Counted from the stretch's first letter, positions 103 to 62,749 are shown. The stretch is 64,000 nt of DNA from a virus (IMGVR_UViG_3300035505_000270:1-64000), one strand, 5' to 3'. The notes: generated by a model from the sequence alone, not told the origin. Numbers and translations are program-made.

Positions 103-2593
103 ATGTCATATGATATAAATGATATTCAACATTTAACCTTTAGAGAGGGCATTAGACAAAAAGTTCCAATGTATTTAGGTTCTGATGATACAGATGGAAT
201 TTATCAAGCTTTTAAAGAAATTGTAAATAATTCAACAGATGAGGCACTGGCTGGCTATGGCGATGTAATAGAGATTAAAGTAGATGAAGATAAAAATTTA
301 ATTTCTGTTAGGGATTATGGTAGGGGAGTGCCATTTGGTATTAGAGACAATGGAGAAAATGTATTAGTATCTATTTATACAGAATCTCATACTGGTGGTA
401 AATTTACAAAAGGTGCATATGCAAACAGCTCTGGATTAAATGGAATTGGAGCAAGTGCAGTATGTCTTTCTTCTCTATCTTTTGCAGTTGAAAGCTATAG
501 AGATGGAAAAGCGGCTGCCGCAAACTTTACTAAAGGAATTTTAGATAACTATAAAGAATTTGATACAAAAGAAAAAAATGGTACTTTTGTTAGCTTCATT
601 CCTGATAAAGAAGTCTTTAAAAATATGACTGATACTTTTACTTTTGATAGAATAATAAGTGAAATAAAAAATATATCTTATCTTAATAAAGGTGTACATT
701 TTATTATTACTAATAAAAAGACAAAACAGAAAAAAGAATTTTATTCAAAAAATGGTATTGCAGATTTTGTTATAGCAGAAGCAAAATCTCCATTAATGAA
801 GCCTATTATTTGTAAAGCAAAAGATGAAATAGATGAGGTTGAAATTGCTTTCTGCTGGACTGCGGGGAAAGAAGCTGCACACGTTTTTGTTAATGGTTTG
901 TATTGTAATGAGGGCGGAAGTCCAGTTACAGGAGCTAAAACAACATTAACAACACAAATCAAGAAAATGAGCGGACAAGACTTAGATGCAGATTTAATTA
1001 GGAAAGGTTTAGTTTATGCTATTAATTGCAAAGTTGCTGAACCCTCTTTTGCAAATCAAACGAAATCAAAGATAAATAATCCTAATCTTCGTACTCTTGC
1101 TTCAAAAGCTTTTAAAGAAGGACTTGATGAATTTCAGAATAGTACAGACTTTGATAATATTATTAAGATGTTAATTAAAGTTCAAAAGGCAGAAAAAGCT
1201 GCAGATAGAGCTAGACGTCAAATCCTTGAAACTTCAAAAGAAATAGAAAAAAATGCTAGTAAAAAAGTATTTAATTCAGATAAATTAAAAGACGCGGAGT
1301 TCTTAGGACCTGGGTCTACGCTGTTAATAGTAGAGGGTAAGTAATTATTGCCCTAATCCTTTTTACCACCTCATCAGTGGGGTTACTTAATTAAAAATAA
1401 GTAGCTAACGGGGAAAGCTGACCGTTACACTTGTAAGTCAAAACAAGTTTAGGCGAAGTCAATCCCGTGGCAAGATTTTATATTGAAAAATTTTTGGACA
1501 AAACTTGATATTTTAATCATATTCCTTTTAGAACTGTTTATGCAGAATTTAAAGATAAAATTTCTAAAAGAGGGCTGCAAAAAGTATGGTATTTTGAAAT
1601 TGGAAAAATATTCATCCTGAATATAATAATGCAGAAAATAAATATTGGCATTCTCACCAAGCAAAAGCAAATGCTTCTGAAATTGCTGCTAATAATACAA
1701 AAGCTTTTACAAAAGAACAAGTTTTACAAATGAGACAAGATTATGATAATGGTATGAGTCCAAAACAAGTTTGGTTAAAATATGTGCCAGATAAAGCATG
1801 GTTTACTATATATAATATAGTAACACACCAAACTTATAAAGATATAGAATAAGCTGTATCGACTATACAGGGCGAGACCTGTAGTAGAAATATTATTGAT
1901 ACATATTTCGAAATAGAGGACACGATGAAGGTTTGACAAACCAGAGTGAAGAGATAGTCAGTGCCTATAGAAATATAGGAGCACACGGATAGTGCTGCAG
2001 GTGCCATGGCTAATGCACGTGATTACTCCAAGTATGGGATTCTTGCAATCAGAGGAAAAATGATTAATTGCCTTAGTAATAATGAAGAGCGAATTGCTGA
2101 TAATGAAGAAATTAAATTATTACTAAAAGCTATGAATATTGTACCAGGAAAATATAATCCCGCTAAATTGCGCTATGGTAGAATAGGTATATGTAGCGAT
2201 GCAGATAGTGATGGCGCGCACATAGGCTTGTTGATTATGTCCGCTTTGCAATATCTTGCGCCACAATTTATACAAGAGAATAGATTATGCTGGTTAAAAT
2301 CTCCGCTTTATATTGTAAAAAATGGAAAAGAAGAACAGTATTATTTTACAGATGAAGAAATGAATGCAGTACGAGATTCTATTAAAGGGGAAGTTCAGCG
2401 AAACAAAGGCTTAGGAAGCTTATCTACAGAGCAAGCCCAACGTTCAATGTTCTCGGATGAATTTCAAAGAATGGAAGTATTAAAACCTAATCCTAACGCA
2501 ATCCAAATGTTAGAAGAACTAATGGGTGATGATGTAAGTTATCGTACAGATTATATATTTAAAAATGTAGATTTTGCTACAATTCATGAATAA
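103..2593 (+). CDS. gyrB: DNA gyrase subunit B, split by group I intron (exons 103-1338, 1988-2593)
   Basis: GHKL motifs (EIVNNSTDE, DYGRGVP, HTGGKF, GLNGIG). Splicing restores the TOPRIM motif LLIVEG|DSA; DADSDG and RNKGLG are in exon 2. Confidence 0.93.
1339..1987 (+). mobile_element. Group I intron in gyrB
   Basis: Exon ends in U; P1 AGGGU/GCCCU; GCTAACGGGGAA...AATCCCGTG core; P7 GACTA(1861)/TAGTC(1955); terminal G1987; in-frame junction. Confidence 0.92.
1538..1852 (+). pseudogene. Homing endonuclease remnant (C-terminal DNA-binding part only, frameshifted)
   Basis: Fragments GLQKVWYFE / WKNIHPEY...FTKEQVLQMRQDYDNG resemble the C-terminus of the dnaB-intron HEG (FTDEQVMEIRKKY); no catalytic domain. 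Confidence 0.6.
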
Positions 2594-2602
2594 AAATTTT
2601 AT

Positions 2603-2631
2603 TTGATTTTAATTAAAAATAATATTATAAT
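2603..2631 (+). promoter_or_regulatory. sigmaA-type promoter upstream of gyrA
   Basis: TTGATT-17bp-TATAAT. Confidence 0.65.
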
Positions 2632-2662
2632 TATAATAAAGAAAAATAATTAGGAGAAAAAT

Positions 2663-5600
2663 ATGAATATAGAAAGAAATATGCAATCTATTATTGAAGA
2701 TAGTTTTACTACCTATGCGGGAGCTGTACTCCAATCACGAGCGCTTGTAGATGTAAGAGATTGTTTAAAACCCTCTGCAAGACAAATTTTTTATTGTTTA
2801 TATACAGATAAGTTCTTGCCTAATAAACCATTTAAAAAGACTTTGAAAGCTATAGGTTCGGTAGCCCGAATGTATATCCACGGTAGAGTAGTAAAAAATT
2901 AATTTTTAGTTGCCGTGTTAAAATCGCGGAATTAAGCGGGAAGGCTAAATCAGAAATGATATGCTAATCCGAACCGAAGGCTATAGAAACTATAGTCAGG
3001 GGCAACGCATAGAGGGTGAAAAGATATAATCCCTCCACGAGGCCGCGACATCTAATAAAGATGAAAAGATATGCTAAACTGAAATAGAAAAGACTATTTG
3101 ATGAAAATGAGCGAAAGCTCCAGAGCATAGGATAAAAAGCCTATGGTTAATAATTATTGGACGCAAGTGCAGAAGGCGTTATAATGAGATCGGGTCAACC
3201 ATTTGCTATGCGGTATCCGCTGATTGAAATAGAAGGTAATGGCGGAAACTTAATGGAAACTGGTAATTGGGCAGCGCCTCGTTATTCTTCTTCAAGATTA
3301 AGCAATTTTTCACTTAAATTATTTGAAGATATAGATAAGAATACTGTAGAAGAGTGGAGAGATAATTATGATGATACTGAAAAGTATCCATCAGTTCTTC
3401 CGTCTAAAGGTTTTTACAACATCGTTAATGGAACTCAGGGTATTGGTATGTAATAATGCCTGTGTTATTACCTTTCTTGTTCACCACAAGGCTCATATAT
3501 AAAGTATGGGTAACGGGGAAGCCTGCCTAATATTTTTTAGGGCAAAATAGAATAATGCCTCATTTATAATTTAATATTATAATGTAAAATATTAAATGGT
3601 AATCCCGTGGGAAACAATGAAAGGAGACTTTTATGAAGTATAATGAAATTCCGCAACATATTTCTGGTATTTATAAAATTAATTTTCCTAATAATAAAAT
3701 TTATATTGGAAGAGCAATAAATATAAGACGTAGAATATCAGAGCATTTTAGAAAAGAAGATAATACAGCTTGCTATGCAGCTTTACATAAATACTATTCT
3801 AAATGTGAAGATATAGAAAAGAAAATGAAACATATCCTATCAGAAATTTTTATCCAAAAAGAAAAGTCTCCAAGTAATTGTAGCCTGTATCGACTATCCT
3901 CGGAGCGGAGGAGTAGGACTATTATTGGTACATAGTTCGAAATGGTAATCGTTGTCATAAGACAATTAAGATATAGTCAGTGCTTATGGAAACATAAGAG
4001 CGCTACGGTTGGCGCATCTAGTAGCCTCCCTCAGTTTAATATTAAGGATGTTAATAAAGCACTAGAAGTACTATTATTAAATCCTAATGCAGATTTTGAA
4101 GAAATTTATTGTCCGCCAGATTTTGCTACAGGAGCTTATTTAATTAATGAAAATGAAGTCAAAGAAGCTTTAAAATATGGTTCAAAAGTAAACGCAAAAG
4201 ATAATAATGCTGTTGGGGCGTCTTGTAAGTTAAGAGCAAAAATAGATTATAGTAATAAAGAAAATTGTTTAATAGTAAATGAAATTCCTTATGGAGTATA
4301 TACAAATACTATATGTAAGCAATTAGAGGCTCTTCTTGATGATGAAGAGAATAATCCTGGTGTTGATAGGTTTAACGATTTAACTGGCGAAAAGGTATTG
4401 ATTAAAATTTATCTTAAAAAAGGGATTAATCCTGATAGAGTGATTAAATCATTATATAAAAATACCTCTTTACAATATCATTTTAGTATCAATATGACAA
4501 TGCTTGATCAAGGTAGATTTCCAAAAGTATTTGGTTGGAAAGAAATTTTACAGGCACACATTGATCATGAAAAAAGTGTTTATATTAATGGCTTTAAATT
4601 TGATCTAGATAAAATTGAAAGTAGAATACATATTATAGATGGTTTATTAATTTGTTTAGCTTCAATAGAAGAGGTTATTCAAGAAATTAAATCCTCTAAC
4701 TCGACAGCAGATGCAAGTATTAAATTACAATCTAAATTTTTATTAGATGAATTGCAGGCAAAAGCTGTATTAGATATGAAATTATCTCGCTTAGCTCACT
4801 TAGAAGTAAAGAAACTTGAAGATGAAAAAAATGAATTAGAGAATAAAGCAAAAGAGATTGAAACTATATTAAATAGCGAAGAACTTCTTAATAATGAACT
4901 TATTAAAGGCTGGAGAGAAGTTGCTAAGAAATATGGAGATGAGCATAGAACTAAAATTATTACAGTTGAAGAAGATACAGAAGATAAAGAAATTGAAACT
5001 GTAGTTGCAGAAGATGTTGTAGTTATCCTAACTCAGACCGGGGAGATTAAGCGCATTCCCGCATCTAGTTTTAAAGTTCAGCGCAGAAATGGTAAAGGTA
5101 TAAAGACAGAAGAAAGTGCTGTCTTAGAGAGCATCTCTACTAATACTATTGATACTTTGATGTTCTTTACTAATACTGGTAAAATGTATAAATTACTTGT
5201 AGATGATATACCTACTGGAACTAATACTTCAAAAGGTATTAGAATAAGTAGTTTAATTAGCTTAGAAGATAATGAAAAAGTGGTAGCCATGACTTCATTA
5301 CATAGAAAGAGCAAACCTCAATATGTAGTTTTCTTCACAAAACAAGGTTTAATTAAAAAGACTTTGTTAGAAGAATATATGAAGGTAAAGCGCGGAAAGG
5401 GCACCGCCGCAATTAAATTTAAAGATAATGATTCATTAGCTAATGTTTTGTTTATGGATGAAGAAGAAGTCGTGATAGTTACTAAAAAAGGTATGTCAAT
5501 TCATTTTAGCACAAAAGATATAGCAGCAATAGGTAGAGTTACATCAGGAGTAAAAGCAATTAAATTAGAAGCGGATGATGAAGTAGTTATAGGATTACCT

Positions 5601-5897
5601 ATTCATAAATATTCTGATAATTTAGCTATTTTCACCACTAGTGGTTTAGGTAAGAAAGTTTCTCTTGAAGAGATACCATATCAGGGTAGGAGTGGAAAAG
5701 GTGTAATTGTATATAAGACTTCTAACTCTACTGGAGAAATTGCGGGCGCCGCAATGATAGATAAAGATGATAATATTTTATTGGTTGGTAAGCCAGGTTC
5801 TATATGCATTTCTGCTAACGATATTCCTTTACTAAATAGAGTAAGTTTAGGTAATATTATGTTAAAAGGAAAAATTAACTCAGTAGTTAAACTATAA
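2663..5897 (+). CDS. gyrA: DNA gyrase subunit A, split by two group I introns (exons 2663-2884, 3160-3447, 4008-5897)
   Basis: RALVDVRDCLKP, HG|D, catalytic AAPRY, NGTQGIG|VG restored by splicing; C-terminal pinwheel repeats with GyrA-box-like QRRNGKG. Confidence 0.93.
2885..3159 (+). mobile_element. Group I intron 1 in gyrA (no ORF, 275 nt)
   Basis: P1 CACGGU/GCCGUG; P7 GCATA/TATGC; terminal G3159; removal joins HG to DASAEG in frame. Confidence 0.88.
3448..4007 (+). mobile_element. Group I intron 2 in gyrA
   Basis: Exon ends GGU; IGS GCC; GTAACGGGGAA...AATCCCGTG; ATCGACTA/AAGATATAGTC P7; terminal G4007. Confidence 0.92.
3633..3935 (+). pseudogene. Truncated GIY-YIG homing endonuclease
   Basis: GIYKINFPNNKIYIGRA motif; only 100 aa, with apparent internal deletion. 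Confidence 0.7.
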
Positions 5898-5921
5898 AGG
5901 GGGAATAATTCTCCCTTCTTG
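5897..5921 (+). terminator. Intrinsic terminator after gyrA
   Basis: AAGGGGGAA-taa-TTCTCCCTT hairpin then T-rich tract. Confidence 0.6.
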
Positions 5922-8043: not shown

Positions 8044-8068
8044 TTTTTTAAAAATTTTGTGGTATAAT
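8040..8068 (+). promoter_or_regulatory. sigmaA-type promoter
   Basis: TTGATT-17bp-TATAAT with TG extension. Confidence 0.6.
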
Positions 8069-8667: not shown

Positions 8668-9627
8668 ATGATTTTTGAAATAATTTTTTTTATATTTGCA
8701 TTAATTTGTTTAATTATAGGAATTAAATATTATATTAATGCAAATCAGATAAAAGTTACTAAATATAAAGAACAAGAATATTTAGATAACCAATATAAAT
8801 TAACACAACAAAATTGTGAGCATATTAAAAAAGAACACCAACAATTAGTTGAAAAATTTGAGCAAGATAAACATCTTTATGAACAGATAGAAAAAGAAGA
8901 TTTAGCAAAAGTACAACAATTATATACCGCTGAAAAAGATAAAGTTACTGTACAGTTTGAGCAATATAAACAAACTACTTCTTTAGCTAGTGAAAAATAC
9001 TTTGAGAATTTAGAAACGGAATATGAAAATGCTGAAATTGCATATAATAATAAAATAAATAAATTAAATTTAGAATATGCGCAAACTAATCAAGAATTAC
9101 AAAAGATAAAAGATACGTTAGCAGCGAGCATTCAAGCCCGCATCCGCGAGAAGGAAATTCAAGATAATCTTTCTTTCTATTGTTTACAAATATCTGATGT
9201 TGATAAATTAGATATACAAAGGCTAGAACAAGTTAAAAAAACGTTATCTAAGCCTAGAGTTCTTAGTATGTTAATATGGCAGACATGGTTTCAAAAGCCA
9301 CTTAAAGCTTTATGTGCAAATGTACTAGGTACTAATGAAAAGACTGGCATCTATAAAATAACCAATGTTGAGACGGGCGAGTGCTACATCGGTCAGGCAA
9401 CGAATACCGCGTCTAGGTGGACAGACCATGCTAAGTGCGGATTGGGCATCGATACCCCCGCAAATAATAAACTATATAAAGCCATGCAAGAGTATGGTTT
9501 ATGGTCTTTTTCTTGGGAGCTATTAGAAGAGTGCCCAAGAGAGCAATTAAATGAAAAAGAAAAATATTATATTGGGTTGTATGATAGTTATAATTTTGGC
9601 TATAATTCAACTATAGGGAATAAATAA
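8668..9627 (+). CDS. Membrane-anchored coiled-coil protein with C-terminal GIY-YIG nuclease domain
   Basis: N-terminal hydrophobic helix, long E/K/Q heptads, GIYKITN...CYIGQ...R...E...N motif. Confidence 0.75.
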   Translation: MIFEIIFFIFALICLIIGIKYYINANQIKVTKYKEQEYLDNQYKLTQQNCEHIKKEHQQLVEKFEQDKHLYEQIEKEDLAKVQQLYTAEKDKVTVQFEQYKQTTSLASEKYFENLETEYENAEIAYNNKINKLNLEYAQTNQELQKIKDTLAASIQARIREKEIQDNLSFYCLQISDVDKLDIQRLEQVKKTLSKPRVLSMLIWQTWFQKPLKALCANVLGTNEKTGIYKITNVETGECYIGQATNTASRWTDHAKCGLGIDTPANNKLYKAMQEYGLWSFSWELLEECPREQLNEKEKYYIGLYDSYNFGYNSTIGNK

Positions 9628-12921: not shown

Positions 12922-13446
12922 ATGGCAACAGCACATTATGTAATCTGTCCTTATTGCGGTGAGAAGTTTAACCGAGATAAGGAGCCTACAACACAGGTTT
13001 CCGCACGTAGATATGCACATAAAAAATGTGCAGAAGAACATGAAAAAAATAAAAGTCAAGAAGAAAAAGACTTAGAAGCATTAGAAAAATATATCAAGAA
13101 TTTATTTGATGAAGAATATGTAAATGCAAGAGTGCGGAAGCAATTAAAAGAATATAAAGAACAATATAATTTTACGTATAGTGGAATATTAAAAACTTTA
13201 ATTTATTGGTATGAGGTAAAAGGCAATTCAATAGAGAAAGCTAATGGCGGACTGGGGATCGTACCTTATATCTATCAACAAGCTTGCCAATACTATTATG
13301 CTTTATATTTAGCGAAATTAGCAAATGAAAATAAAGATATTCAAAACTATCATACTAAAGTTAAGGAAGTGGAAATTCCACCTCCGCAACCAAAATTATT
13401 TAAAATAAAATTATTTAACTTAGAGGAAGAGGAAGATAATGTCTAA
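12922..13446 (+). CDS. Zn-finger protein upstream of helicase (possible loader/initiator)
   Basis: CPYCG...H..C; start reassigned to ATG 12922 after AGAGGT; overlaps the helicase start. Confidence 0.55.
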   Translation: MATAHYVICPYCGEKFNRDKEPTTQVSARRYAHKKCAEEHEKNKSQEEKDLEALEKYIKNLFDEEYVNARVRKQLKEYKEQYNFTYSGILKTLIYWYEVKGNSIEKANGGLGIVPYIYQQACQYYYALYLAKLANENKDIQNYHTKVKEVEIPPPQPKLFKIKLFNLEEEEDNV

Positions 13447-16093
13447 ATATATAGATACAACAGCAATAATAAATGTAATAGGCTCAATTTTTCTTAATCC
13501 TTTACTATTGGATAATGAAAAATATAATTTTTATGAAGAAGATTTTCCGCAAGAGTTTCATAAAATTATTTTTGGTTCTATTTATAATTTACATAATCTT
13601 GGGGCTAAAGAAATTACTATTAGCACAATAGAAGATTACTTAGAGCAACGCCCAAAAAAGATGGCAATTTATAAAGCGAACAAAGGAACTGAATATTTAA
13701 ATAAACTTGCGGAAGTTACTCAATTAGCTACTTTTGATTATTATTATAGTCGAATGAAGAAAATGACTTTATTTAGAATGTATCAAAAAATAGGTTTAGA
13801 CCTCTCTTGGTTGTATGATAATGATAACATTTTAGATACTAAAAAGAAGCAAACTCAAGAAGAATGGCTAGATAATACTTCATTAGAACAGATTGCGGAA
13901 ACCATAGATTCTAAGATATCTGCTATTAAAATGAAATATGCAGATGATTATAATGAACAATCTGCGCAAGCTGGTGAAAATGTATTAGAGTTAATAGAAT
14001 CTTTTAAAAAGAATCCAGAGTATGGATATCCAATGTTTGGTCCTCTTATTAATACTATCACGCGCGGGGCTCGGTTAAAAAAGTTCTACCTACGTTCGGC
14101 CCCCTCGGGCCTCGGCAAAACGAGAGCAATGATAGCGGACGCGTGTAACTTTGCCTGCAGTGAGTTATATGATTATAAAGAACATAAATGGGTAGAGAAT
14201 GGTTCTAAAGAACCTACTTTATATATTACAACAGAACAAGAGATAAATGAAATTCAAACTATGATGATAGCTTTTATATCAGATGTAGATGAAGAGCATA
14301 TTTTGACGGGAGAATATTATGAAGGAGAATGGGAGCGCGTGGTAAAAGCTTCTAATATCTTGCAAAAATCTCCCATTTATATTCAAGAGTTACATGATTT
14401 TTCTTTGCAAGATATTGAGAATACATTAAAACGTGGGATTCATGAGCATGGTGTGCGTTACTTGTGTTTGGATTATCTGCACACAAGTATGAAAATTCTT
14501 TCAGAAATATCCTCCAAATCAAAGGTATCCGGTCTCCGCGAGGATAATATTTTATTTTTAATTAGTGTTAGACTTAAAGATTTAGCTAATGATTATGGAG
14601 TGTTTATTCTCTCTTCTACGCAGTTAAATGGTAGGAAAAAGTAACTGCCAATAAAACCTTATCCTAGAACTCACTAGGGGTATTTAATAAATTTTTGGAC
14701 AAAGTTTATTAAATGCTAACGGGGAACTTTAAAGTATATTGTACAGTAAATAACTAAATGCAATTTACCATGAGAATCCCGTGTGATGCAATCCATTCGA
14801 TTTATTATGATATTTTGCATTGTCATAATAAGGAGAAAAATATGATTGGAATTTATTTAATAACAAATAATGTAAATGGTAAAGTTTACGTGGGACAAAG
14901 TATTAATATTGAAAGAAGATATTCAGAGCATTTAAGATCTGGACAGCCTGAAAAATATTCTTTAAAAAATAAAAGAGATATTAATACTCCAATACACTTA
15001 GCAATGCAGAAATATGGTATAAGTAATTTTTCTTTAAGTATTTTAGAAGAGTGCTTAAAAGAAGAGTTAGATGATAAAGAAAGATTTTGGATTCATTATT
15101 ATAATTCAACAAATAAAGAAAAAGGCTATAATATAGGTTTGGGCGGACAAGAAAGTTTTGCATTAAAAGGAGAAAATCACAGCCAAGCAAAACTTAATCA
15201 AAAAGAAGTTAATGAAATAAAAAAACTTTTAAAAGAAACTGATTTAACCCTAACCGAAATAAATGATAAATTTCCTTTTGTTTCAAAGTCTACTTTATCA
15301 ATGATTAATCAAGGTAAAATTTGGTCCGAAGAAAATGAGTCATATCCAATAAGAATTATGTCAGTTGGAATAAAAGGCTCAAAAAATAAAAAAGCTAAAT
15401 TTACTGATGAGCAAGTTATGGAAATAAGAAAAAAGTATGCAGAAGGTCAAACTCCAAATCAACTTTATCCGCAATATAATCACATTGCTACCAATTCTGC
15501 TATAAAAGCTATAATTTATGGAGAATCATATAAAAATTTGCCAATTTATAAAAAGTCAATCAAAAAATGGATTGAGCCATGTATCGACTATCCCCAAAGT
15601 CTGAAACAAGCTGGGGAGTAGGGACGCTAGCTGAGATGCGTCTGCATTTTAGGAAACGAAGTGCATGAGAACCGAAATAGGTTTTAAGTTATAAAAAATT
15701 TTATAACTTTAAGAGATAGTCAGTTCCTTATAGAAATGTAAGGATTAAACGAGTTGGAAGGAAGAGAAAATTCCGGATCAAAACTTGCTTAGAGGCGCCA
15801 AAGCAATTGCAGACAAAATTGATATAGGGGCCATTATGCTGAAAGCCACAAGCGAAGATATAGAATCACTTCAACCAATCCTTGATAGTAAAACTTTTGA
15901 AGTTCCCGATATGAAAATATCAATTTATAAAAATAGACGAGGAAAATATAATAACCTTTTCTTATGGTGCAAAAGTAATAAAGGTACTTGTAAAATTATT
16001 CCTTTATTTGCCACTGATTACAATTATGAATTTATTGAAATGGAAGATACAAAAATAAATATAAAACCCGCAATTCAAGCAAGTGCTTTTTAA
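13439..16093 (+). CDS. dnaB: Replicative DnaB-like helicase, split by group I intron (exons 13439-14632, 15752-16093)
   Basis: Walker A SAPSGLGKT, CLDYLH, LSSTQLNG|SWKEEKIPDQNLLRGAKAIADKID, KNRRG. Confidence 0.88.
14633..15751 (+). mobile_element. Group I intron in dnaB
   Basis: Exon ends GGU; IGS GCCA; GCTAACGGGGAA...AATCCCGTG; ATCGACTA/AAGAGATAGTC; terminal G15751. Confidence 0.92.
14842..15621 (+). CDS. Intact GIY-YIG homing endonuclease
   Basis: GIYLITNNVNGKVYVGQS, GYN, two C-terminal HTH-like repeats; AGGAG RBS before ATG 14842. Confidence 0.88.
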   Translation: MIGIYLITNNVNGKVYVGQSINIERRYSEHLRSGQPEKYSLKNKRDINTPIHLAMQKYGISNFSLSILEECLKEELDDKERFWIHYYNSTNKEKGYNIGLGGQESFALKGENHSQAKLNQKEVNEIKKLLKETDLTLTEINDKFPFVSKSTLSMINQGKIWSEENESYPIRIMSVGIKGSKNKKAKFTDEQVMEIRKKYAEGQTPNQLYPQYNHIATNSAIKAIIYGESYKNLPIYKKSIKKWIEPCIDYPQSLKQAGE

Positions 16094-20148: not shown

Positions 20149-21338
20149 ATGAAATTGACTAAAAAACAAGAAGAAGGTTTGAAAATTGCTATAGCCAGAT
20201 ACAGAAACAATAAAAAGTTTACTGTTATCTCTGGCTATGCCTAAAAGCAGGAACCGGGAAATCAACTCTAGTTCGTTTTATCATTGAGGCATTGGATGTA
20301 GAAGAAAGAAAAGTAGCTTATGCAACATATACAGGTAAAGCAGCAGAAGTATTACGCAAAAAGGGTAATCCAAATGCTATGACTTTACATAAATTATTGT
20401 ATGATAGTTTCCCTCGCCCGGATGGAGGTTTCTATCGCAAACCTAAAGTTTCATTGGACTTTACTATTGTTGTTGTAGATGAGGTATCAATGGTTCCTAC
20501 TGAAATGATAGATTTATTATTGAGTTACAATGTTTATGTAATTTTCTTAGGCGATCCATTTCAGCTAGGCCCGATCTCTAAAAAGGATGATAATCATCTA
20601 CTAGACAAGCCTCATGTATTCCTATCTGAGATTATGCGCCAAGCTGCAGAATCTGAAATTATTCAACTTACTATGAAAATACGTGAAGGTGAAGTCATAG
20701 ACTATTTTCAAGGGAAAGATATTTTAGTGATTCCTCCTAGTGAATTAGTTACTGGGCATATGACTTGGGCAGATCAAATTATTTGCGCTACTAATAGCAA
20801 AAGAAGAGCATTAAATGATCAAATGCGCGAACTGCTTGGTTATAGCGGGCTGCCGCAAACGGGCGAACGCATGATTTGCTTATCTAATTATTGGGAAGAT
20901 TTATCTGAAGATGGAGAATCTGCACTAGTAAATGGAACAACAGGTATTATTCAAAATCCTTTTGAAACCTATACTATGGCTCCACAATATATAAAAATGA
21001 AAAATCATCGCATGAATATAATTTGTGGAGAGTTTATTACAGAAGATGGAACAACTTTTCATTCTGTTGACATGGATAAAAAAATGATACAAACTGGAGA
21101 ACCTTGTCTTGATTGGAGAGAATCTTATGCTCTTGGTAAATTAAGAAATAAAATAGGGGATATCATACCTAGGCAGTTTGCGTATGGGTATGCGATTACG
21201 GCTCATAAAGCACAAGGCAGCGAATTTGATAAAGTTTTAGTCATAGAAGAGTCTTTTCCATTTGATAAAATTGAACACGCCCGGTGGCTATACACAGCTG
21301 CAACTCGTAGCGCAGAGAAGCTTGTTTTAGTGAGGTAG
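20149..21338 (+). CDS. SF1B (RecD2/Dda-like) helicase with an 8-nt coding gap in Walker A
   Basis: MKLTKKQ...SGYA (20149-20241), stop TAA, then GTGKST in another frame from 20250; DEVSMV, LGDPFQL, AITAHKAQGSEFD, LYTAATRS intact. Confidence 0.85.
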
Positions 21339-21343
21339 TAGAT

Positions 21344-21568
21344 ATGACACACGACATACGGAATCCAAAAACAAGAAATGAAGCTAAAAATTTTATGGTA
21401 TTTTATAAACCAATTTACACTTTAATGAATAATAAAAATACTGATATTAAATTAATTGCTGAAATGGATTTATTTAATAATTATATTGAATTTTTAATAT
21501 GTGATGAGGCAGAAGAAATTTTTTCAATTCTTCTTTTGAAATATGTGAAGCAGTTGATTTATTTTTGA
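21344..21568 (+). CDS. Hypothetical protein
   Basis: ORF directly after helicase. Confidence 0.5.
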   Translation: MTHDIRNPKTRNEAKNFMVFYKPIYTLMNNKNTDIKLIAEMDLFNNYIEFLICDEAEEIFSILLLKYVKQLIYF

Positions 21569-21650
21569 TGAAGTTGATAAAGAAAATGATAAATAAATTT
21601 TTAATTCTAATAAAACTAAATCTATTTTTAGTTAGAAAATTTGAAAAGAA

Positions 21651-21672
21651 AGAGTGCTTGTCACTCTTTTTT
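21651..21672 (+). terminator. Intrinsic terminator
   Basis: AAAGAGTG-cttgt-CACTCTTT plus T tract. Confidence 0.6.
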
Positions 21673-21699
21673 GACTTTTTATAAAAATTATGTTATAAT
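21671..21699 (+). promoter_or_regulatory. sigmaA-type promoter
   Basis: TTGACT-17bp-TATAAT with TG extension. Confidence 0.75.
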
Positions 21700-21731
21700 A
21701 TATATAGAAAAGAAAAAGGGGTATAAATAAT

Positions 21732-22019
21732 ATGTATTCCAAAAAAGAACAGTTATTAAATCTTATCAACAATATAAACGTAGAAAATAAAAACTATTCA
21801 AAGTCCTATTGGTGGGGAATTAATAATCCTTATGCTGATGAAATGGAAAGTTATCCGTATATAAAAAGTATGTTTATATCTGACAATGCTTTTGAAAGAG
21901 CATGGATAAATGAATGTTGGGAACTTGTAAATGATAAAATCGGTTTTTGGGCAGATAATTTAGATTATATTCAAATATTAGAATCCATACTAAGGAGTAA
22001 AAATGAATTATCCAGGTAG
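21732..22019 (+). CDS. Hypothetical protein
   Basis: ORF with promoter and RBS, overlapping the dnaE start. Confidence 0.55.
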   Translation: MYSKKEQLLNLINNINVENKNYSKSYWWGINNPYADEMESYPYIKSMFISDNAFERAWINECWELVNDKIGFWADNLDYIQILESILRSKNELSR

Positions 22020-25000
22020 TTTACATAATCATACCCAGATGTCGAATTTCAGGATTCGGGATTGTATTATTAAAGAGGAAGATTTAATTAATAAAGCAAT
22101 AGAATTAAATCATTCAGTTATAGCAGTTACAGACCATGAAACTATAGCATCTGCAGTGAGAGTAGAAAAAATATATAATAAAATTAAAGAGAAAAATATT
22201 CCATTAAAAGTTATAATGGGTAATGAGATTTATTTATGTAGAGATGGTTTAAATAATGAAAATTATGTAGCGGGAGAAGATAAATATTATCATTTTATTC
22301 TTTTAGCTAAAGATTTGCAAGGCTATCAACAAATTTGTGAATTATCTACTAGAGCTTGGATGAGAAGTTATGTGAGTAGAGGCTTAAGAAGAGTTCCTAC
22401 TTATTATCAAGATATAGTAGAAATTATAGGAAAGAAGCCAGGCCATGTTATTGGTTCTAGCGCTTGCCTTGGTGGTATGCTTGCAACTCAACTTTTAAAA
22501 TATAGAGATACTCAAGAGCAAGACACAGATTTATGGAATAAAATCTTAAATTGGTGTCAATTAATATGTAACACTTTTGGCGGGAAAGATTATTTTTATT
22601 TAGAATTACAGCCTTCTGCTTCAAAAGAGCAAACATATGTAAATAGAAAATTAATAGAAATATCTAATTTATTAAATATAGATTATATTATTACTACAGA
22701 TTCTCATTATTTACAAAAAGAAGATAAAAATATTCATAAAGCTTTTCTTCATGCCCAAGATGGAGATAGAGAAGTAGATTCATTTTATGCTACAACTTAT
22801 TTAATGAACACAGAAGAATTAGAATCTCATTTAGATTTAACAAGAGAGGAATTAGATAGGGCTTATAGTAATATTACAAAAATTCAAAATTTATGTGAAG
22901 ATTATTCTATTTTAAAACCTTTAAAAATTCCTAGTCTTAAATGGAATGATTATAGTAATATTTCTTTAACTCAAGAATGGATAGATAAAATTCCTATGTT
23001 AGAAACTTTTAATAATTCTTCTTTCGACGGAGATAAAAAATTAGTTAAAGCAATAATAGTAGGTATTAATAAACATGAAGATTTACAAAATCAAGAAGCT
23101 TATAATGAAATTAATAGCAATCTGCAAATGACTTGGGTATCTTCTAACGTAAATAAAGCACATTGGTCAGCCTATTATCTTAATCTTCAAAAGATTATAG
23201 ATTTATGTTGGGAAGCAAATTCTATAGTAGGCCCAGGAAGAGGCTCAGGTGTAGGTTTTATTCTTTTATATTGTTTAGGTATTACACAAATTAATCCTTT
23301 AAGAGAAGAAACTAAAACTTATAGTTGGAGATTAACCCATAGGGTTTAAAGGTCTCCTAGGCATGGTGACATGCCTACAAAAAACCTCGTGAACGCAAGA
23401 AAAAGCGGTGTGAAATTATTAAAATTAATTTTGCTAACGGTGGACAGTTTTAATTAAACTCAATACCGTGCTTTTTTACTTTTCATTGGAAAAACAAGTG
23501 AAAGTAAGGAGTGTATCGACTATTCCTGATGAGTGTAAGGAAGTAGAATAGATTTTATCACTATTCGAAGCGCGAGGACTCTCCTTTATTTTCTTTTAAA
23601 CCGAAAGGAGAAAATAAATGGGACATATTTATAAAATTACAAATTTAATTAACCAAAAAGTTTACATAGGGCAAACTATTAAAACAGTTGAAAAAAAGAT
23701 TTCAACAACATAAAAATAATAGTAATAAAGAGTACTTTTCTCAAATTATTTTATATAAAGCATTTAATAAATATGGTATTAATAACTTTAAATGTGAAGA
23801 AATTGAAGAAATTGATAATGAATATTTAAATGAAAGAGAAAAATATTGGATAGAATATTATGATAGTTATTTTAATGGTTACAATAGCACCTTGGGCGGA
23901 AGAGCTACTCAATTATATAATTGGGATATAGATGATATTATAAAAAATATATGAGATTAAAATCTGCTCGGAAGGTAGCATTAGAAATTGGCTGTGATCA
24001 TTCAACTATAGATAGAATATTGAATGAAAATGGAGTTAAACGATTTACCCCAGGACAGCAACAATCAAAACCATTAATTATAATAGATAAAGAAAATAAC
24101 AAACATAATTTTGAAACGACAAGAGAAGCTGCTGAATGGTTAATTAAAAATAAATACACAAAAATGATAAATCCTACAATAGTAAGGCAAGAAATATGTA
24201 ATAGGATTAAAAATAATAAAAAGTATTTAGGTTTGGAAATATTTTATAAAGGAGAGTAAGAGATAGTCAGCTCCATTGGTGACAATGGAAAAAGTGTTTT
24301 GAACCCAGAACGTGTATCTGTTCTTGATATTGATTTTGATATAGAAGGTAGTAAAAGAGCACAAGTTTTATCAAAATTTAGAGAATTTTATGGTGAAGAT
24401 AGAGTATCAAATGTAATTACTTTTAGAACAGAAAAAACTAAATCTGCTATATTAACTGCAGCAAGAGGCTTAGGTATAGATAATGATGAGGCACAGTATT
24501 TAGCAAGTCTCATTCCCGCAGATAGAGGTCAAATAAGAAGTTTATCAGAAGTATATTATGGTAATCCCGAAAAAGATTTTAAACCAGTTACCGCCTTTGT
24601 TCAAGCTATGGATACAGATTACCAAGAACTGTGGCAAGTAGCTCAAAAAATAGAAGGGTTAATATGCGGAACAGGTATTCATGCGGGTGGTGTTATCTTC
24701 GTGGATGAACCCTTTACCTTATCTACTGGATTAATGCGAGCGCCGGATGGTACAATCTGTACTCAATTTGATCTTCATGACGCAGAGGCCGTGAGCCTTA
24801 TCAAGTATGATGCGCTCTCAGTCGAGGCTATGGATAAACTTCATGTCTGTCTTGATTTAATTTGCAATTATGGATATGAAACAAGAGAAGCTACTTTACG
24901 TGAAACATACGAAAAAATTATAGGTATTTATAAATTAGATAGAACATCTGAAGATATGTGGAAAATGGTGTGGGAACATAAAATTTTATCATTATTTCAG

Positions 25001-26830
25001 ATGGAACAGCAAAGTGGTATTCAAGGTATAGCTTTAGCCAAGCCAAAAAGTGTTAACGACCTTAGTGTTTTAAATTCAGTTATCAGACTAATGGCGCCAG
25101 ATAAGAATAGCGATACCCCTTTGGTAACTTGGTCTAAATATCGTAAAAATATCAATTTGTGGTTAAAAGAAATGCGAAATTATGGATTAAGTCAAGAAGA
25201 AATAGATTGGTTATCTAGCCATTCTGCCATTACAGACGGGATCTGTGAGTCACAAGAGGGGCTAATGTCATTAGTCCAAGAACCTAGATTAGGCGGAAAT
25301 ACCTTAACTTTTGCAGATAAATGTAGAAAAGGTATTGCAAAAAAGCAAGGTAAGCTATTCCAAGAATGCGAAGATATATTTTATGAAAACATTAAAAAGA
25401 ACAATTGTTCAGAAAAATTGGCACATTATGTGTGGGATGTACTGCTTAAAGTACAGCGTGGATATTCTTTTAATAGATCGCATTGTCTTGCATATTCTTT
25501 AGTAGCCTTACAAGAGATGAATTTAGCATATAAATATCCAATTATTTTTTGGAGTTGTGCTTGTTTAATTAGCAATAGTGGTTCTTTAGAAGATAATGGT
25601 ACTACTGACTATGCAAAAACTGCAAAAGCACTAGGGGATATTATTTCAAGAGGAATTAAAGTAACTTTAGTAGATATTAATAAATCTAATTTTAGTTTTG
25701 AACCTGATGTAGAGAATAATCAAATCTTGTTTGGTTTAAAAGCATTAAGTGGTATTAATACAGATGTTATTAATAAAATTATTGCGGGCCGCCCTTATAA
25801 AAGTTTTATTGACTTTTTAAATCGTTGTCCATTAAATAAAACCGCTATGATTTCTCTTATTAAAGCGGGAAGCTTTGATAACCTTGAGGAGCAATGGGCA
25901 AAAGAGTTAAATATTGAACCTAGAGTTTTAATTATGATTTATTATATTTTAAAAGTTAGTGAGCCTAAGAAAAAATTAACTTTACAAAACTTTAATGGTT
26001 TAATACAAAGAAATTTAGTGCCAGAAGATTTAACTTTCACAAAGCGAATATATATATTTAATGATTACTTAAAGAAAAATAAAAAAGTAGGAAAATATTA
26101 TGTATTTGACGAAGCTTGTGATAGATTTTATTCTCAATTCTTTAATATGGAATTATTACAAGTAATTAATGGTTATACTTGTATTTTACAATCTAATTGG
26201 GAAAAGATATATCAGAAAGAAATGGATGCGGCCAGGGCTTGGTTGACAAATAACCAAGATTCGGTGCTTAAAGAGTTTAATTATCTTTTATTTAAAGAAT
26301 CTTGGGATAAGTACGCAGAAGGCACTATATCAGCATGGGAAATGGAAGCATTATGTTTTTATTATCACGAGCATGAATTAATAAATATTAATACATATAG
26401 ATACGGAGTGATAGATTTCTTTAACCTACCTGAAGATCCTCAAGTTGATTATTTCTTTAAGAGAAATGGAAAAGAAATTCCTATTTATAAGTTATACAAA
26501 ATCATAGGTACGATAATTAGTAAAGACGATGCTAAATCATCAGTAACTATTTTAACAACTCGTGGTGTAGTAACAGTAAATTTTACTAAAGAATATTATG
26601 CTATGTATAACCGCAGAATATCAGAAATAGAAGCGGATGGTAGCAAAAAAGTTAAAGAAGAAGGTTGGTTTAAGCGTGGAACCAAGATTATGGTGACGGG
26701 CTTCCGCAGAGAAAATCAATTTGTAGCCAAAACCTATCAAAAAACTGAATCACATCAATTGTATAAAATTGTACAAGTAAATAATGATACAATGATATTA
26801 GAACATAATAGATATGGACAAGGAGAGTAA
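22003..26830 (+). CDS. dnaE: DNA polymerase III alpha subunit, split by group I intron (exons 22003-23332, 24297-26830)
   Basis: PHP domain (HNHT, TDHE, TTDSHY), GPGRGSG, WRF|LNPERVSVLDIDFD, GIHAGG, YSFNRSH, C-terminal OB fold. Confidence 0.93.
23333..24296 (+). mobile_element. Group I intron (IA2-like) in dnaE
   Basis: P1 GGAGAU/GUCUCC; GCTAACGGTG...AATACCGTGC; ATCGACTA/AAGAGATAGTC; terminal G24296; junction T|TT restores Phe. Confidence 0.92.
23618..24259 (+). pseudogene. GIY-YIG homing endonuclease with two frameshifts
   Basis: HIYKITNLINQKVYIGQT from ATG 23618; +1 A at ~23691-23697 and -1 A at ~23942-23947. Confidence 0.8.
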
Positions 26831-30100: not shown

Positions 30101-30201
30101 GACGTACGTGTGGATATATTGGCTCCCATTTTTGGAACTATGGAAGAACAAATGAAATTAAAGATCGATACGTTCATTTAGGTGGAGAAGAAATAGTATG
30201 A
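27197..30201 (+). CDS. nrdD: Anaerobic ribonucleoside-triphosphate reductase, split by group I intron (exons 27197-28478, 29273-30201)
   Basis: ATP cone, NCC, MGCRSFL finger loop, YYGRF|NMGVTTINL, C-terminal CxxC-CxxC and RRTCGYI glycyl-radical motif. Confidence 0.95.
28479..29272 (+). mobile_element. Group I intron (IA2-like) in nrdD
   Basis: P1 GGUCGGU/GCCGACU; GCTAACGGTGAAAG...AATACCGTGC; ACGACTA/AAGAGATAGTC; terminal G29272. Confidence 0.93.
28621..29208 (+). CDS. HNH homing endonuclease
   Basis: HKIVYETWIG...VLHKDDNSLNNNIDNL...QNIKD; open frame with AAGGAG RBS. Confidence 0.88.
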   Translation: MKTISIQGITYKQFKDTKYYCSKDGKIYSDFSQKILKPLIKNIGNKQYYYIDINFGNGQKHYPIHKIVYETWIGQIDNNLFVLHKDDNSLNNNIDNLYLGTQQQNIKDCQNNNHRIGNTWILTVYDKEKKETVTFCPAKEFITYSEHSCKNGGIKRVFTRNWFKQRYDIIDYYLCKSLDIKKGVTTMGDECSPVE

Positions 30202-58400: not shown

Positions 58401-61400
58401 GCAACTACAACATCTAAAACAGGATTAGCCAGTAATGAAGCATTCCAAACTTCTTGAGCAGCAGTCTCCTCTTCTGTAGCCTTTAACAACACTTCTTCTG
58501 CTGCGGCCTGCCCTGTTATTGCAATAGCTTGTTCTTCTGTTAGACCTATACTTATTAATTCTTCTTTAGATTTGGAAGATAAAATCGCAATAGTCTCTTT
58601 ATCTGTTAAATTAGCCTGTAATTTTAATTCTTTTTTAATTTTTTCAATGGTTATATTTTTTGTATCTATAGCTTGCTGAGTAAGAGCTATTGAGGTTTCT
58701 TTATCTTGGATTGCCAAACTAGCCTCTTCAACCGCTTTGCTTGCTTTTTTAAGTTGGATATTTGACTTAATACCTAAATTTGTAATATTTAATGTATCTC
58801 CCAACTGCTTCATATTAGAAATTACCATTGGTAATGACATTCCAAGACTCATGACAACTTGTTCAATCTTATCTACGGTGTCGGCAGTATCATCTTCAAT
58901 AGTTTGCACTACAGAAGAAACGGAACTCCATACCATTGTTAACGAAGATATGGCCGCTGTGGCTGTTTGAACCCGTTGCGCAATATCTTTATTTTGTTTA
59001 GCATTTTCTATAGCACCAGAAAATTGATTATCTATATTTGCACTACTGTTTTGCTTAGACTGAATTTCTTCTACTGCTTTTTTATATTTTTCTACAGCTT
59101 CAACCTTTTTTTCCATTTCCGCAGCTGCTTTTTTTTGATTTTTCCATTCTTGATTAGCCTTATTTACATTATCAGAAGAAAGTTCAACATGTTCTTTTAA
59201 CAACTCTATATTTTTATTATGAACTATTAATTCTTGTTGTACAATGTTAACAATCTTTTGTTGGTCATCTTCAATCTCTTCCCAATCTTTTTTAGATTTA
59301 TCTTGTTTATTTAATAATTCTTGAAAATCTTCTATAAATAGTAATAATTCTTCATTTGGAATATCAAAATTATTAACATATTTTTTTACTTCGTCTAAAA
59401 AATTTTGTTTACTATCTATTACTGATTGATCAATATTATTTCCTTCTGATTTAGTATTTTTTGTGCTAGCTTTAGCTTGTTTTATTATTTCATTAGTTTG
59501 AACTTCCAGTTCTTTAGTTTGTTTTTGTTTAAGTATTAATTCTTCTTTATCTGCATCTAATTGTTCTTTTGTTTCATCAAGTTTTTTTCTAGCGAATTCT
59601 GTTGCTTCTTCTGTTTCAGATTGTAGCGTTCCAAATATAATATTTAGTTTATTTAAATATTCATTTTCTTCTAAATTATTTTTTTCAATACCAGTAGCCT
59701 TTTCTACTTCTGCGGCTGCTTGTTTTTGTAATAAAACTGTTTCATATTCAAGCTGGCCTCTTTTTTGTTGCATTTTTACTAATTCAGAATACTGCTCTTG
59801 TGTAATACCCTTTCTAGCTGCTTGAAGCTGTTTAGCATAATTTAATTCAACTTCATATTCTTTTTGTATTGCAATATCGTTAGCGGTAATGGTACCTTTT
59901 CCTGTAGTAGTTTGCGCTTTATTTACATCTGCAATTTTAGCAGAAATTAATTCTAACTGTTTTTCTGCAGTAGCGACATTTTGAGCATATTTTTGAGCAT
60001 TAGAATTGGCAAGAATAATTGCTTTACTAATTTGTTTATTAAAAATATTAGCTATGACTGTACCAAAAGCTATAATGGATTTAGTACCACCGCCAAAAGA
60101 ATCAATAAAGTTATCAAATACTTGAACTAAGTTACTTAATGCATCTATTCCAGTATTTAATTCATCTTCATCTATTAAACTACCATATAAATCTTGCCAT
60201 GTTGTTTTTAATTTTTGTAATTTTGCATCTGTTGATTCCATATAAATGTCTTGTTGTTTTTGTAATGTACCAACAGCATTTGTAGAGGTCTCAACTGCAT
60301 CTGTATACATACTCCAGTTATCGAATAATGACAAGAGGTTGTTGTACTGCATTACTACACTATCTTTCGATAGCCATTTCTGTTGTAGTCTGGACTATAC
60401 CATACTCTATTGCTAGAGGAGCTATTATAGTCTCTGAGCGTCTTTCTTACGACAAACACCTCCAATTAAAACCATGACTTGTACCTTCTCTTATACAAGC
60501 CCCAGATATTAAACTTTGACTGATTCCCGTTTCTCTACTAGCTTCATTAGCAGAATTATAAATTTTAATAAGAATCATTTCTTTATCATACTGACCAACC
60601 TGCCTTGCCTTAGAATTTGTTTTAGTGATATAATAACTATGCTTCATATTTTCACTTTGAGTTGTTAATTCTAAATTTTCTAAGCAATTATTTTGCTTGT
60701 TTCCATCAATATGATTAATAATTAAAGTTCTATCTTATAAATTAAAATTATTATTAAAAGCTTTATATACTAATCTATGTCCAAGAAAAGTTTTTCTTTT
60801 TCCGTCCACTCTTAGCTCATAACGGACATATCCAGTATCTCTTTTTCCGGTTAAGATTCTATTGGTATTATTGTTACGTATCCTTCCTAAATTAGATGCA
60901 GAATACGATGTATTTAGTAAAGGCTTCCATGTTTCATTTTCTAAATTTCCTTCATAATACATAATAGTATTATAGTTTTTAGATCTTAAACCAGTTTCAA
61001 TCGCATGAATTGTATTTTCTTGATTAGTTACCTATTCTAAATTTTCTACATTATTATTTAATTTATTCCCATCTTTATAATTTACAATATTGCATTCTGC
61101 AGATTTTTTTGTATAAAATATTCAGCAACTAATCTATGCGCTCTAAAGCTTTTTGTTGGTTATTAATTTTTAATATATAATCTAAATAACCATTTTCAGA
61201 AACCCTACCTTTATACCAATTATTAGTTTTTTTGATTATATAGTCTTCCAAAAGAAGAAATAAAATAATCTGTAGGATTTCCTTCATAATAAATTTGTTT
61301 TAATTATTCTGACATTTTGATAATCTCCTTTTATTTTTATTTTCTAATATAATTAGAAAATAACCACAGTGTGATTATCTTGTCCTAAGAAATTTCGTTG

Positions 61401-62749
61401 CGTCTGGTTGCCCAATCCTTAGCGATGTTACCATACCTTGGTCGCTAGCCTCGCCACTATTATGTCACCACAATAGCTTGGTTGCTAAGGCTCTAAGGGT
61501 GTTCCCGCAATTTAAACTCTTTTACAAGCGCCATTACTTAACGCTTACCAGCCAGGTCAATAGCTAAAGCTTGTTTCTGCGCATCTGACCATACCCCAGA
61601 GTTCCATTTATTACCAACTTCTTCAATAACTTCTCCAAGGTCACGCATATTTCCTTCTACATCTAAAATAGAGACTCCCATTGAATCAAGAGAAGAAGAT
61701 ACATCACCCAATGAAACTCCATATTCATCTTCTCCATCTAGCTCTAAATCTTCCATACGCGCGAAAATGGTCTTGAGCGCGGTACCTACTGATTCTGGAG
61801 CCTCTCTGGTAACAGAGATAATTGTAGACATCATACCATTCAATTGGTCAATATCTACACCCATATTACTTGCGGCAGATGCTACTTTACTCATACCGGT
61901 AGAAAGTTCTTCTAGGTCTGATGCGGTAGTAGCGGCAACCGCAGCTAATTTATCTACGTATAATTCAGTTTCTTCTGCTGTAACTTTATAACCATTCCAA
62001 ACCGCAGTTAACTCGTCTGATACTTCTTCACCAGTTTGTCCTGTTACGTTTGCAGCCTTTAAGGTTGTTTCAGTTCTTGCGGCAACCTCTGTGTCGTTAA
62101 GGCCTTGCTGGTAATAGATCAAGCTAGCTTCGGTGTAATCTAGCGTGCTGGCGCCTAATGTTTTTGCTGCGCTATTAGCTTGCTCTGCAAAAGTTTTCAT
62201 GCTTTCCGCACTTTTATCTGTTACTATACGAATATCGTTTAAAGTGCTATCTAAATTTTCAGCATAAGATACTGAACTAGATAATGAACTAGTTATTTCC
62301 TGAAAGATGGCAGAGGTGATTCCCCATCTAACCGTATTAGCCATTGTAGTAGCCATTTGGTCTAATAATTTACTAGATTCTTTTATTTGTATATTGGTAT
62401 TTAAAATGCTAGAACCAATTGCATTAAAGGCTGTCGCGCCTTTAATACCAGCTTGCTCTAAACTAGATTTAATTTGTTTTATGTCTAATTCAGATTTAAT
62501 TAACTCTTGATTAAATTTATTAACATTTAATGTTCCTAAATCTACATTATAGGATTTTTGTAAAATTTCCTGTAAAGAAGAGGCGGTTTTTGCTGCTGCT
62601 TGTAAACCAACATTTAACTGTTGGCCTGGCGTAGCTGCGTTAGCTTTGGCTGAAACAATAATTTTTTCCAAAGCGGTTTGCGCAGTTTTTAAGCCACTAG
62701 TATCGGTTGTAAAACCAATTTTAACATTTATATTAGCATTTGATGCCAT
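52451..62749 (-). CDS. Tail tape measure protein (~3035 aa), split by group I intron (exons 62749-61541, 60349-52451)
   Basis: TP901-type core (LDYTEAS.IYYQQG, ELTAVWNG, APESVGTALKTIFAR); junction AGKR|QYNNL; long helical region; C-terminal FDTGGYTG...AVLHQKELVL. Confidence 0.88.
53250..53311 (-). repeat. 27-bp tandem repeat (~2.3 copies) encoding a Ser/Gly linker
   Basis: gagctagatgaggaaccgctagaacta x2 plus partial copy. Confidence 0.85.
60350..61540 (-). mobile_element. Group I intron in tape measure gene
   Basis: P1 AAGCGU/GCGCUU; AGAGACTA/GTATAGTC P7; terminal G at 60350; in-frame junction CGT|CAG. Confidence 0.9.
60447..61315 (-). pseudogene. Degenerate tandem HNH (NUMOD4-like) homing endonuclease
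   Basis: In-frame TAA at codon 4, frameshifts, NLE*VT, VNYKDGNK (His lost) in repeat 1; second repeat WKPL...SNLGRI...HRLVY...INHIDGNKQNN. Confidence 0.75.

Follow-up and report, generated by a model that had tools for sequence, protein, structure and literature searches.

Seven predicted group I introns, falling into three structural classes, in six essential genes of an uncultured SPbeta-related phage

The stretch IMGVR_UViG_3300035505_000270:1-64000, hereafter the window, comprises bases 1-64000 of a 73,251-bp IMG/VR virus record with an estimated completeness of 53%. In it, seven insertions break up six essential genes (gyrB, gyrA, dnaB, dnaE, nrdD and the tape measure gene). Our interpretation, to which we give a probability of about 0.92, is that these insertions are group I introns, that they are mobile and that they belong to three structural classes. 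The source phage is uncultured, about 140 kb in size and distantly related to SPbeta; its closest cultured relatives are SPbeta-like Bacillus phages, the dnaE product being 38% identical to SPbeta YorL, and IMG/VR holds dozens of related contigs, each 130-160 kb long.

Interrupted genes and predicted introns

The six genes, with their exons and the Pfam domains found in them, are as follows (TMP, tape measure protein).

103-2593, plus strand: gyrB; exons 103-1338 and 1988-2593; HATPase_c, DNA_gyraseB, Toprim and GyrB_C; spliced product 613 amino acids (aa)
2663-5897, plus strand: gyrA; exons 2663-2884, 3160-3447 and 4008-5897; spliced product 799 aa
13439-16093, plus strand: dnaB-type helicase gene; exons 13439-14632 and 15752-16093; DnaB and DnaB_C; spliced product 511 aa
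22003-26830, plus strand: dnaE (YorL-like Pol III alpha); exons 22003-23332 and 24297-26830; PHP and DNA_pol3_alpha; spliced product 1287 aa
27197-30201, plus strand: nrdD; exons 27197-28478 and 29273-30201; ATP-cone, NRDD and Gly_radical; spliced product 736 aa
52451-62749, minus strand: TMP gene; exons 62749-61541 and 60349-52451; PhageMin_Tail in exon 1; spliced product 3035 aa

The predicted introns are listed below with their structural class, the site of insertion (a caret marks the junction) and any open reading frame (ORF) that they carry.

1339-1987, plus strand: gyrB intron, class A (td-like IA2), at EG^DSA of the Toprim domain; only a startless 84-codon ORF remnant, at 1598-1852
2885-3159, plus strand: gyrA-1 intron, class B, at IHG^D; 275 nucleotides (nt), without an ORF
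3448-4007, plus strand: gyrA-2 intron, class A, at GIG^VG; short GIY-YIG ORF at 3633-3935 (100 aa, Pfam) in the P6 loop
14633-15751, plus strand: dnaB intron, class A, at QLNG^S in helicase motif H3; intact GIY-YIG gene at 14842-15621 (Pfam GIY-YIG, 6e-11) in the P6 loop, with an AAGGAG ribosome-binding site
23333-24296, plus strand: dnaE intron, class A, phase 1, at WR^FLNPER a short way ahead of the catalytic DIDFD; in the P8 loop, a GIY-YIG gene broken by two frameshifts, its pieces running from 23619 to 24259
28479-29272, plus strand: nrdD intron, class A, phase 1, at GR^FN; intact HNH_3 gene at 28621-29208 (Pfam) in the P6 loop; no P9 hairpin
60350-61540, minus strand: TMP intron, class C, at AGKR^QYNN; P5 extension, no P7.1 or P7.2; decayed NUMOD4-HNH-NUMOD1 endonuclease remnants (Pfam on fragments) in the P6 loop

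Exon junctions and uninterrupted homologues

The first-pass annotation had placed seven introns in the window, and its coordinates proved exact for all of them, each insertion and each junction being read directly in the sequence. In 7/7 cases the last exon base is T (U in the RNA) and the last intron base is G, and every junction restores the reading frame, so that the joined exons are open with no internal stop. The junctions read VEG^DSAAG in the Toprim domain of GyrB, IHG^DAS and GIG^VGAS in GyrA, QLNG^SWKE in DnaB, WR^FLNPERVSVLDIDFD (also written WR^FLNPER) just before the catalytic DIDFD of DnaE, GR^FNMGV in NrdD and AGKR^QYNN in TMP. At the second gyrA junction, positions 50-144 and 145-428 of the Pfam DNA_topoisoIV profile are exactly contiguous across the removed insertion. 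As had been claimed, six of the seven insertions (GyrB, GyrA twice, DnaB, DnaE and NrdD) fall in conserved enzyme motifs, the seventh being in TMP; the conservation of these motifs is well established for their families, and is also apparent in the homologue alignments made here.

The joined-exon translations were compared by tblastn with 91 related loci (IMG/VR contigs, denoted by L numbers), a homologue being counted as gap-free when it had no gap within 15 residues on either side of the junction. Gap-free homologues made up 16/17 of those spanning the junction in gyrB, 13/15 and 14/15 at the first and second gyrA junctions, 17/17 in TMP, 14/28 in dnaB, 7/42 in dnaE and 5/26 in nrdD. At every junction the nearest spanning homologues, with up to 86% identity, are gap-free. 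Thus, dnaE is uninterrupted in L020 and L014 (86% and 83% identity), nrdD in L044 and L054 (both 70%), dnaB in several relatives with 62-64% identity across the junction, gyrB in L083 (63%) and gyrA in L070 (68%) and L069 (82%). The TMP is continuous in all of its spanning homologues, residues 1-2061 forming one tblastn segment in L087.

The same sites are occupied in some relatives and empty in others, which gives a patchy distribution. At the dnaE site, L017, L027, L052 and L060 have an insertion and L014, L015, L016 and L020 have none; in gyrA, L076 and L085 are occupied at both sites and L074 at the second. Near-complete relatives carry between zero and five class A introns each.

The clade of the source phage is particularly prone to invasion by introns and endonucleases. 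Across relatives (L014-L068), dnaE has at least eight insertion sites, at residues ~155, 444, 452-454, 566-572, 704, 832 and 876-884, and relatives also show a further dnaB insertion at residue 342 and several in nrdD. In L076 (1600-6000 and 12900-13100) four pieces make up gyrB and three make up gyrA, all within about 5 kb, and introns of all three classes stand side by side. This locus is more broken up than the window, and therefore the window phage is not the most fragmented of its clade.

Three structural classes of intron core

The introns of the window fall into three classes: A (gyrB, gyrA-2, dnaB, dnaE and nrdD), B (gyrA-1) and C (TMP). The group I core, consisting of P3, the P4-P6 domain, a P7 pseudoknot crossing P3, P8 and J8/7, is found in all of them, and its helices lie far beyond chance. 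The P7 helix that the first-pass annotation had reported is present in each class, that of class B being a variant (GCAUA/UAUGC, with a P7.1 hairpin between P7 and P3'). Similarly, a P1 with a U·G pair at the splice site, of 4-6 bp, is formed in 7/7: AGGGU/GCCCU in gyrB (5 bp), CACGGU/GCCGUG in gyrA-1, GUCGGU/GCCGAC in nrdD and AAGCGU/GCGCUU in TMP (6 bp each), also 6 bp in dnaE, and 4 contiguous bp in dnaB and gyrA-2.

Exact core elements are common to the class A introns; all five have them in one order, and the rest of the window lacks them. As a reference for this class we used 17 ORF-less introns from other IMG/VR contigs, obtained by a pattern scan from which the window was excluded. RNAalifold applied to them recovered P4, P5, P6, P7, P7.1, P7.2 and P9, with compensatory changes in 19/37 pairs. 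Covariance models were built from these 17 introns alone, separately for the 3' domain (R1) and the 5' domain (R2). On the window, R1 matched the five class A introns and nothing else, and R2 matched the same five plus a short local match at 2938-2970 (26 bits), which is P4-P5 of the class B intron; this local match means that classes A and B share a P4-P5 module despite their different P7. In each of the five introns the two matches have the correct order and position. The scores for R2 and R1, respectively, are 60.8 bits (1344-1475) and 92.5 bits (1850-1985) in gyrB, 53.6 bits (3454-3615) and 118.9 bits (3881-4004) in gyrA-2, 56.8 bits (14641-14789) and 73.1 bits (15575-15749) in dnaB, and 26.5 bits (28491-28584) and 40.1 bits (29164-29277) in nrdD; in dnaE, R1 matches in two parts, 23507-23649 (27.2 bits) and 24219-24294 (20.6 bits). 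Run on the 169-kb T4 genome as a positive control, R1 matched in exactly three places, in td, nrdB and nrdD, beside I-TevI, I-TevIII and I-TevII.

Covariation in class A was counted on alignments of 32 matches for the 3' domain and 25 for the 5' domain, taken from the window and the related loci. In the 3' domain, 97.1% of cells are paired and 22/27 pairs show compensatory changes, with a score of 0.754 versus 0.204 for shuffles and at most 0.12 for slid partners; in the 5' domain, 94.1% of cells are paired and 14/20 pairs are compensatory (0.497 versus 0.145). Both P7.1 (4/4 pairs) and P7.2 (7/7 pairs), which lie between P7 and the 3' strand of P3, covary throughout. For P3 we used a search of cognate versus non-cognate helices, a full-length MAFFT alignment having misplaced P1, P3, hp1 and P8. 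P3 pairs covary, with a modest separation (6.1 bp for cognate versus 4.7 bp for non-cognate strands) because many P3 sequences are alike.

A further module of two covarying hairpins, the first of which carries a conserved CUUU..CC...GGGGU, lies between the 5' strand of P3 and J3/4 of class A. Because these hairpins separate the two elements, class A is filed as a variant architecture within the IA2-like introns. In the window the module is found at:

1370-1405, 3470-3510, 14665-14716, 23394-23434 and 28512-28547: class A two-hairpin module

It is also present in a cultured phage, Enterococcus phage VRE9_3, which R2 matches with 97.3 bits; a blastn search of cultured phages with the class A 5' domain gave no match.

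The class B fold, derived from seven homologues (A7), comprises P3, P4, P5, P6, P7.1 and P8, with 97.5% of cells paired and 16/41 pairs compensatory. The class C fold, from six ORF-less homologues (A6), has 98.8% of cells paired and 16/41 pairs compensatory, including covariation of 5/5 P3 pairs. The class C core, with its long P5 extension, resembles the Rfam consensus, and the family also occurs in other genes of the related contigs.

Motif and model scans of the window revealed no additional core of class A, B or C. An eighth intron is predicted outside it, at L011:4877-6150 on the minus strand (G000 68877-70150), in a virion gene of 156 codons. Its core is of class B (AAGAUAUGCC in J8/7), and it has a P1 of GGAUCA/UGGUCC, a terminal G and an intact 353-aa LAGLIDADG_3 ORF in the P7.1 loop. 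Counting this one, the density is high, at least eight introns in 73 kb, or about one per 9 kb. Another possible eighth element, in the intergenic region 21338-21732, was rejected: nothing is missing from the helicase, and a terminator and a promoter-like stretch lie in this gap.

Points weighing against the assignment

Several observations weigh against this assignment. All seven introns come from one metagenomic contig, the record being 53% complete. P1 has little power on its own: 6 bp are formed at 7.5% of random T positions and at least 4 bp at 35%, so that in dnaB and gyrA-2 P1 alone is close to what chance would give. For the dnaE intron, the 5'-domain match is only marginal (R2 at 23371-23476, 14 bits, E 0.11). 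The class A pair counts come from alignments fitted to the models themselves, and P7 is invariant in all classes, which makes covariation uninformative for that helix. In addition, the comparison with T4 td is imperfect, as P3 of td abuts J3/4 directly where class A has its two extra hairpins.

The public model also fails on these copies. The first-pass annotation had suggested a check with Infernal and group I models; the whole window gave no match at the gathering threshold in Rfam and no group I match at E values up to 10, isolated introns included, and RF00028 alone gave a single match, of 18.7 bits at 1846-1980 in the gyrB intron, against a gathering score of 50. Likewise, Rfam found nothing for class B in the loci of AR9, phiR1-37, BpSp and the Clostridium and Staphylococcus phages compared below. 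This failure is a matter of sensitivity and not of structure: the model fails on the window copies because ORFs occupy their loops and because the class B P7 is divergent. With ORF-less relatives RF00028 performs better. The nrdD intron of L043, which is of the canonical td type and lacks the two extra hairpins, reaches 59.5 bits, above gathering, and ORF-less homologues score 36.3 bits in class A and 42.5 and 39 bits in class C.

With these points considered, the junctions, core topology, covariation, our covariance models for class A, endonuclease ORFs and the homing signature in dnaE together argue that all seven elements are group I introns, as the first-pass annotation had proposed.

Mobility and endonuclease genes

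Endonuclease genes or their remnants occupy peripheral loops in 6/7 introns. They are intact in dnaB (GIY-YIG) and nrdD (HNH), truncated in gyrA-2, broken in dnaE and TMP, vestigial and unassignable in gyrB, and absent from gyrA-1. The remnant in the TMP intron (60735-61299, minus strand) has decayed by nonsense and frameshift changes, with a TAG in place of the W in the LEWV motif that is usual for HNH_3 endonucleases, and a second NUMOD4-HNH-NUMOD1 copy is broken by one TAA.

The patchy occupancy described above is accompanied by a clear signature of horizontal transfer in dnaE. Along exactly its 964 nt, the dnaE intron shares 97.2% identity with the one that L017 carries at this site, compared with 77-79% for the neighbouring exons; this difference points to recent homing. 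The endonuclease gene of the L017 intron is intact (213 aa), and that of the window has been frameshifted twice.

Alternative explanations

The alternative that survives best, to which we give only a small probability, accepts the insertions as group I introns but holds that at least one of them no longer splices. The record would then represent a defective genome copy, or contain assembly errors, and some of the essential genes would be pseudogenes. The metagenomic and fragmentary nature of the record is in keeping with this idea, as are the two frameshifts in the dnaE endonuclease relative to L017, the stops in that of TMP and a separate frame break in a helicase gene at 20242. Moreover, the nrdD intron has no P9, and the nrdD and dnaE introns are the lowest-scoring in both domains. 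However, the decay is confined to the endonuclease ORFs and all core helices can still be formed, near-identical ribozyme cores occur in other contigs, and the exons are free of stops and frameshifts even across the 9.1 kb of TMP and the 3.9 kb of dnaE.

A second explanation, which we consider very improbable, is that these are truly split genes, in which endonuclease cassettes separate fragments that are translated apart and assembled as subunits, with no splicing of the RNA. T4 topoisomerase genes 39 and 60 and the mobE-split nrdA of Aeromonas phage Aeh1 are reportedly organized in this way. The endonuclease genes or remnants in six of the insertions would suit such an arrangement, several public phage records annotate such pieces separately, and an in-frame ATG or TTG lies near the start of some downstream exons (2006, 3942, 15785, 24299, 29278 and 60352). 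Yet the breaks in dnaE and nrdD fall within a codon, after its first base, the 96-codon middle exon of gyrA has no start of its own and the gyrA-1 insertion contains no ORF. In addition, the breaks pass through catalytic motifs and not through domain boundaries, and all of the insertions have covarying group I folds and a precise terminal G.

Finally, other intervening elements, namely inteins, group II introns or translational bypass gaps, have a negligible probability: such elements, including short bypass-like gaps, are known in relatives and in other phages (PMC12350094), but an exon-frame stop codon lies 0-11 codons into every insertion, so that none can be read through and therefore none is an intein, insertions of 275-1191 nt with no reverse transcriptase ORF and no group II match above chance inside any of them do not fit group II introns, and they are far too long for ribosome hopping. 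The only group II match in Rfam, of 21.4 bits (E 1.4), is a weak domain-V-like one in the intergenic region, at 21498-21543.

Proposed splicing and homing

If the seven elements are group I introns that splice, each gene would be transcribed as a single pre-mRNA, and the stop encountered early in the intron would release the ribosomes and allow the RNA to fold. The fold would be a group I core, with P1 presenting its U·G pair at the 5' splice site, the P3-P8 and P4-P6 domains, and P7 providing the guanosine pocket. An external guanosine would then attack the 5' splice site, and the freed 3'-OH of the exon would attack after the terminal G of the intron, ligating the exons and restoring the codons of the catalytic motif. 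At the DNA level, the introns would spread by homing: endonucleases encoded in the loops (GIY-YIG in dnaB, HNH in nrdD) may cut intron-less alleles of co-infecting relatives, and the repair of the cut would introduce a copy of the intron. Of the other endonuclease genes, most are decaying or gone, as would be predicted for a late stage of the homing cycle. From the sequence data we infer the splicing itself, be it autocatalytic or protein-assisted, and the activity of the two intact endonucleases.

Comparison with known introns

Class A is akin to the proven introns of T4. The T4 introns in td, nrdB and nrdD (sunY), which are IA2 introns associated with I-TevI, I-TevIII and I-TevII, have, like class A, P4 ACGGGG, P4' UCCCGUG, P7 CGACUA/UAGUC, P7.1, P7.2, P8 and J8/7. 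As in td, the endonuclease ORF is typically in the P6 loop, and GIY-YIG and HNH types are found in both phages. In td, R2 reaches only 17 bits, which is consistent with the absence of the two-hairpin module. The host genes differ, and the insertion in nrdD is at about residue 270 in T4 versus 427 in the window phage.

Class B has its closest counterparts in the gyrA introns of the Bacillus phages AR9/PBS1, the last 100 nt of the window intron being about 87-88% identical to both AR9 gyrA introns. More distant relatives, at 70-81%, are found in gyrA of Yersinia phage phiR1-37 and Bacillus phage BpSp, in a terminase gene of a Clostridium phage and in a tail gene of a Staphylococcus phage. The annotation of AR9 joins gyrA from three pieces. 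The first AR9 site is in the same HPHGD region of GyrA; the second does not correspond to site 170 of the window, and the insertion in phiR1-37 gyrA is several codons upstream. The phiR1-37, Clostridium and Staphylococcus copies carry an ORF, unlike the window copy. With gyrA introns annotated in AR9 and gyrA split in phiR1-37 and BpSp, the novelty that the first-pass annotation had ascribed to gyrA sites was overstated.

For class C, the comparison is one of description. Group I introns in the tape measure genes of Bacillus cereus-group prophages were reported by Tourasse and Kolsto 2008 (PMC2504315), and from that description they resemble the TMP intron of the window, with its P5 extension and without P7.1 or P7.2, in occupying a very long TMP of the Firmicute siphovirus type and in having a degenerate or absent endonuclease.

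Phages with many introns are also known. In Jug and crAss-like gut phages, many group I introns split nrdD, terL and DNA polymerase and are associated with HNH, GIY-YIG and LAGLIDADG endonucleases, the Jug phages having 18.5 introns per genome on average, and splicing was seen in metatranscriptome reads for 37/76 predictions (PMC12880540). These are Bacteroides phages of 360-402 kb with introns mostly of about 206 nt and about one per 20 kb (PMC12880540), in contrast with the SPbeta-like window phage, which has about one per 9 kb, located in gyrase, DnaB, DnaE and TMP. More than 100 phage introns have been catalogued (PMC11878797). Both tape-measure introns (PMC2504315) and multi-intron phages (PMC12880540) have thus been published, and in this respect too the novelty was overstated. 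Intron-rich phages and most of the target genes are already known, the present one is a well-documented ordinary case, and its novelty is modest.

The two-hairpin module of class A and the variant P7 of class B may deserve cataloguing. It is possible, although we regard it as doubtful, that they mark undescribed subtypes, with class A a two-hairpin IA2-like form of this clade and VRE9_3 and class B a widespread form whose GCAUA/UAUGC P7 is invisible to Rfam, and that the clade is among the most intron-dense known.

Implications for annotation and intron biology

An automated annotation would mis-call the six essential genes as at least 13 fragments, and none of the introns responsible is found by the standard Rfam model. 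The related contigs form a series of occupied and empty sites (at least eight in dnaE) with endonucleases ranging from intact to gone, and this material is ready for use in work on the homing cycle and on better group I covariance models. Should splicing be conditional, then replication (through gyrase, helicase, polymerase and the dNTP supply) and tail assembly would be gated by the folding of RNA. The principles of phage intron biology are unchanged by these findings.

Other features of the window

Two further genes of the window are worth mentioning. The RecD-like helicase gene at 20149-21338 has a frame break at 20242-20246, in its Walker A motif, where GYA is followed by TAA; beyond the break, the -1 frame reads GYALKAGTGKST, and a 1-nt shift or an assembly indel would explain it. 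Between replication genes, at 8668-9627, a free-standing ORF of 319 aa with a C-terminal GIY-YIG domain probably encodes a free-standing homing endonuclease.

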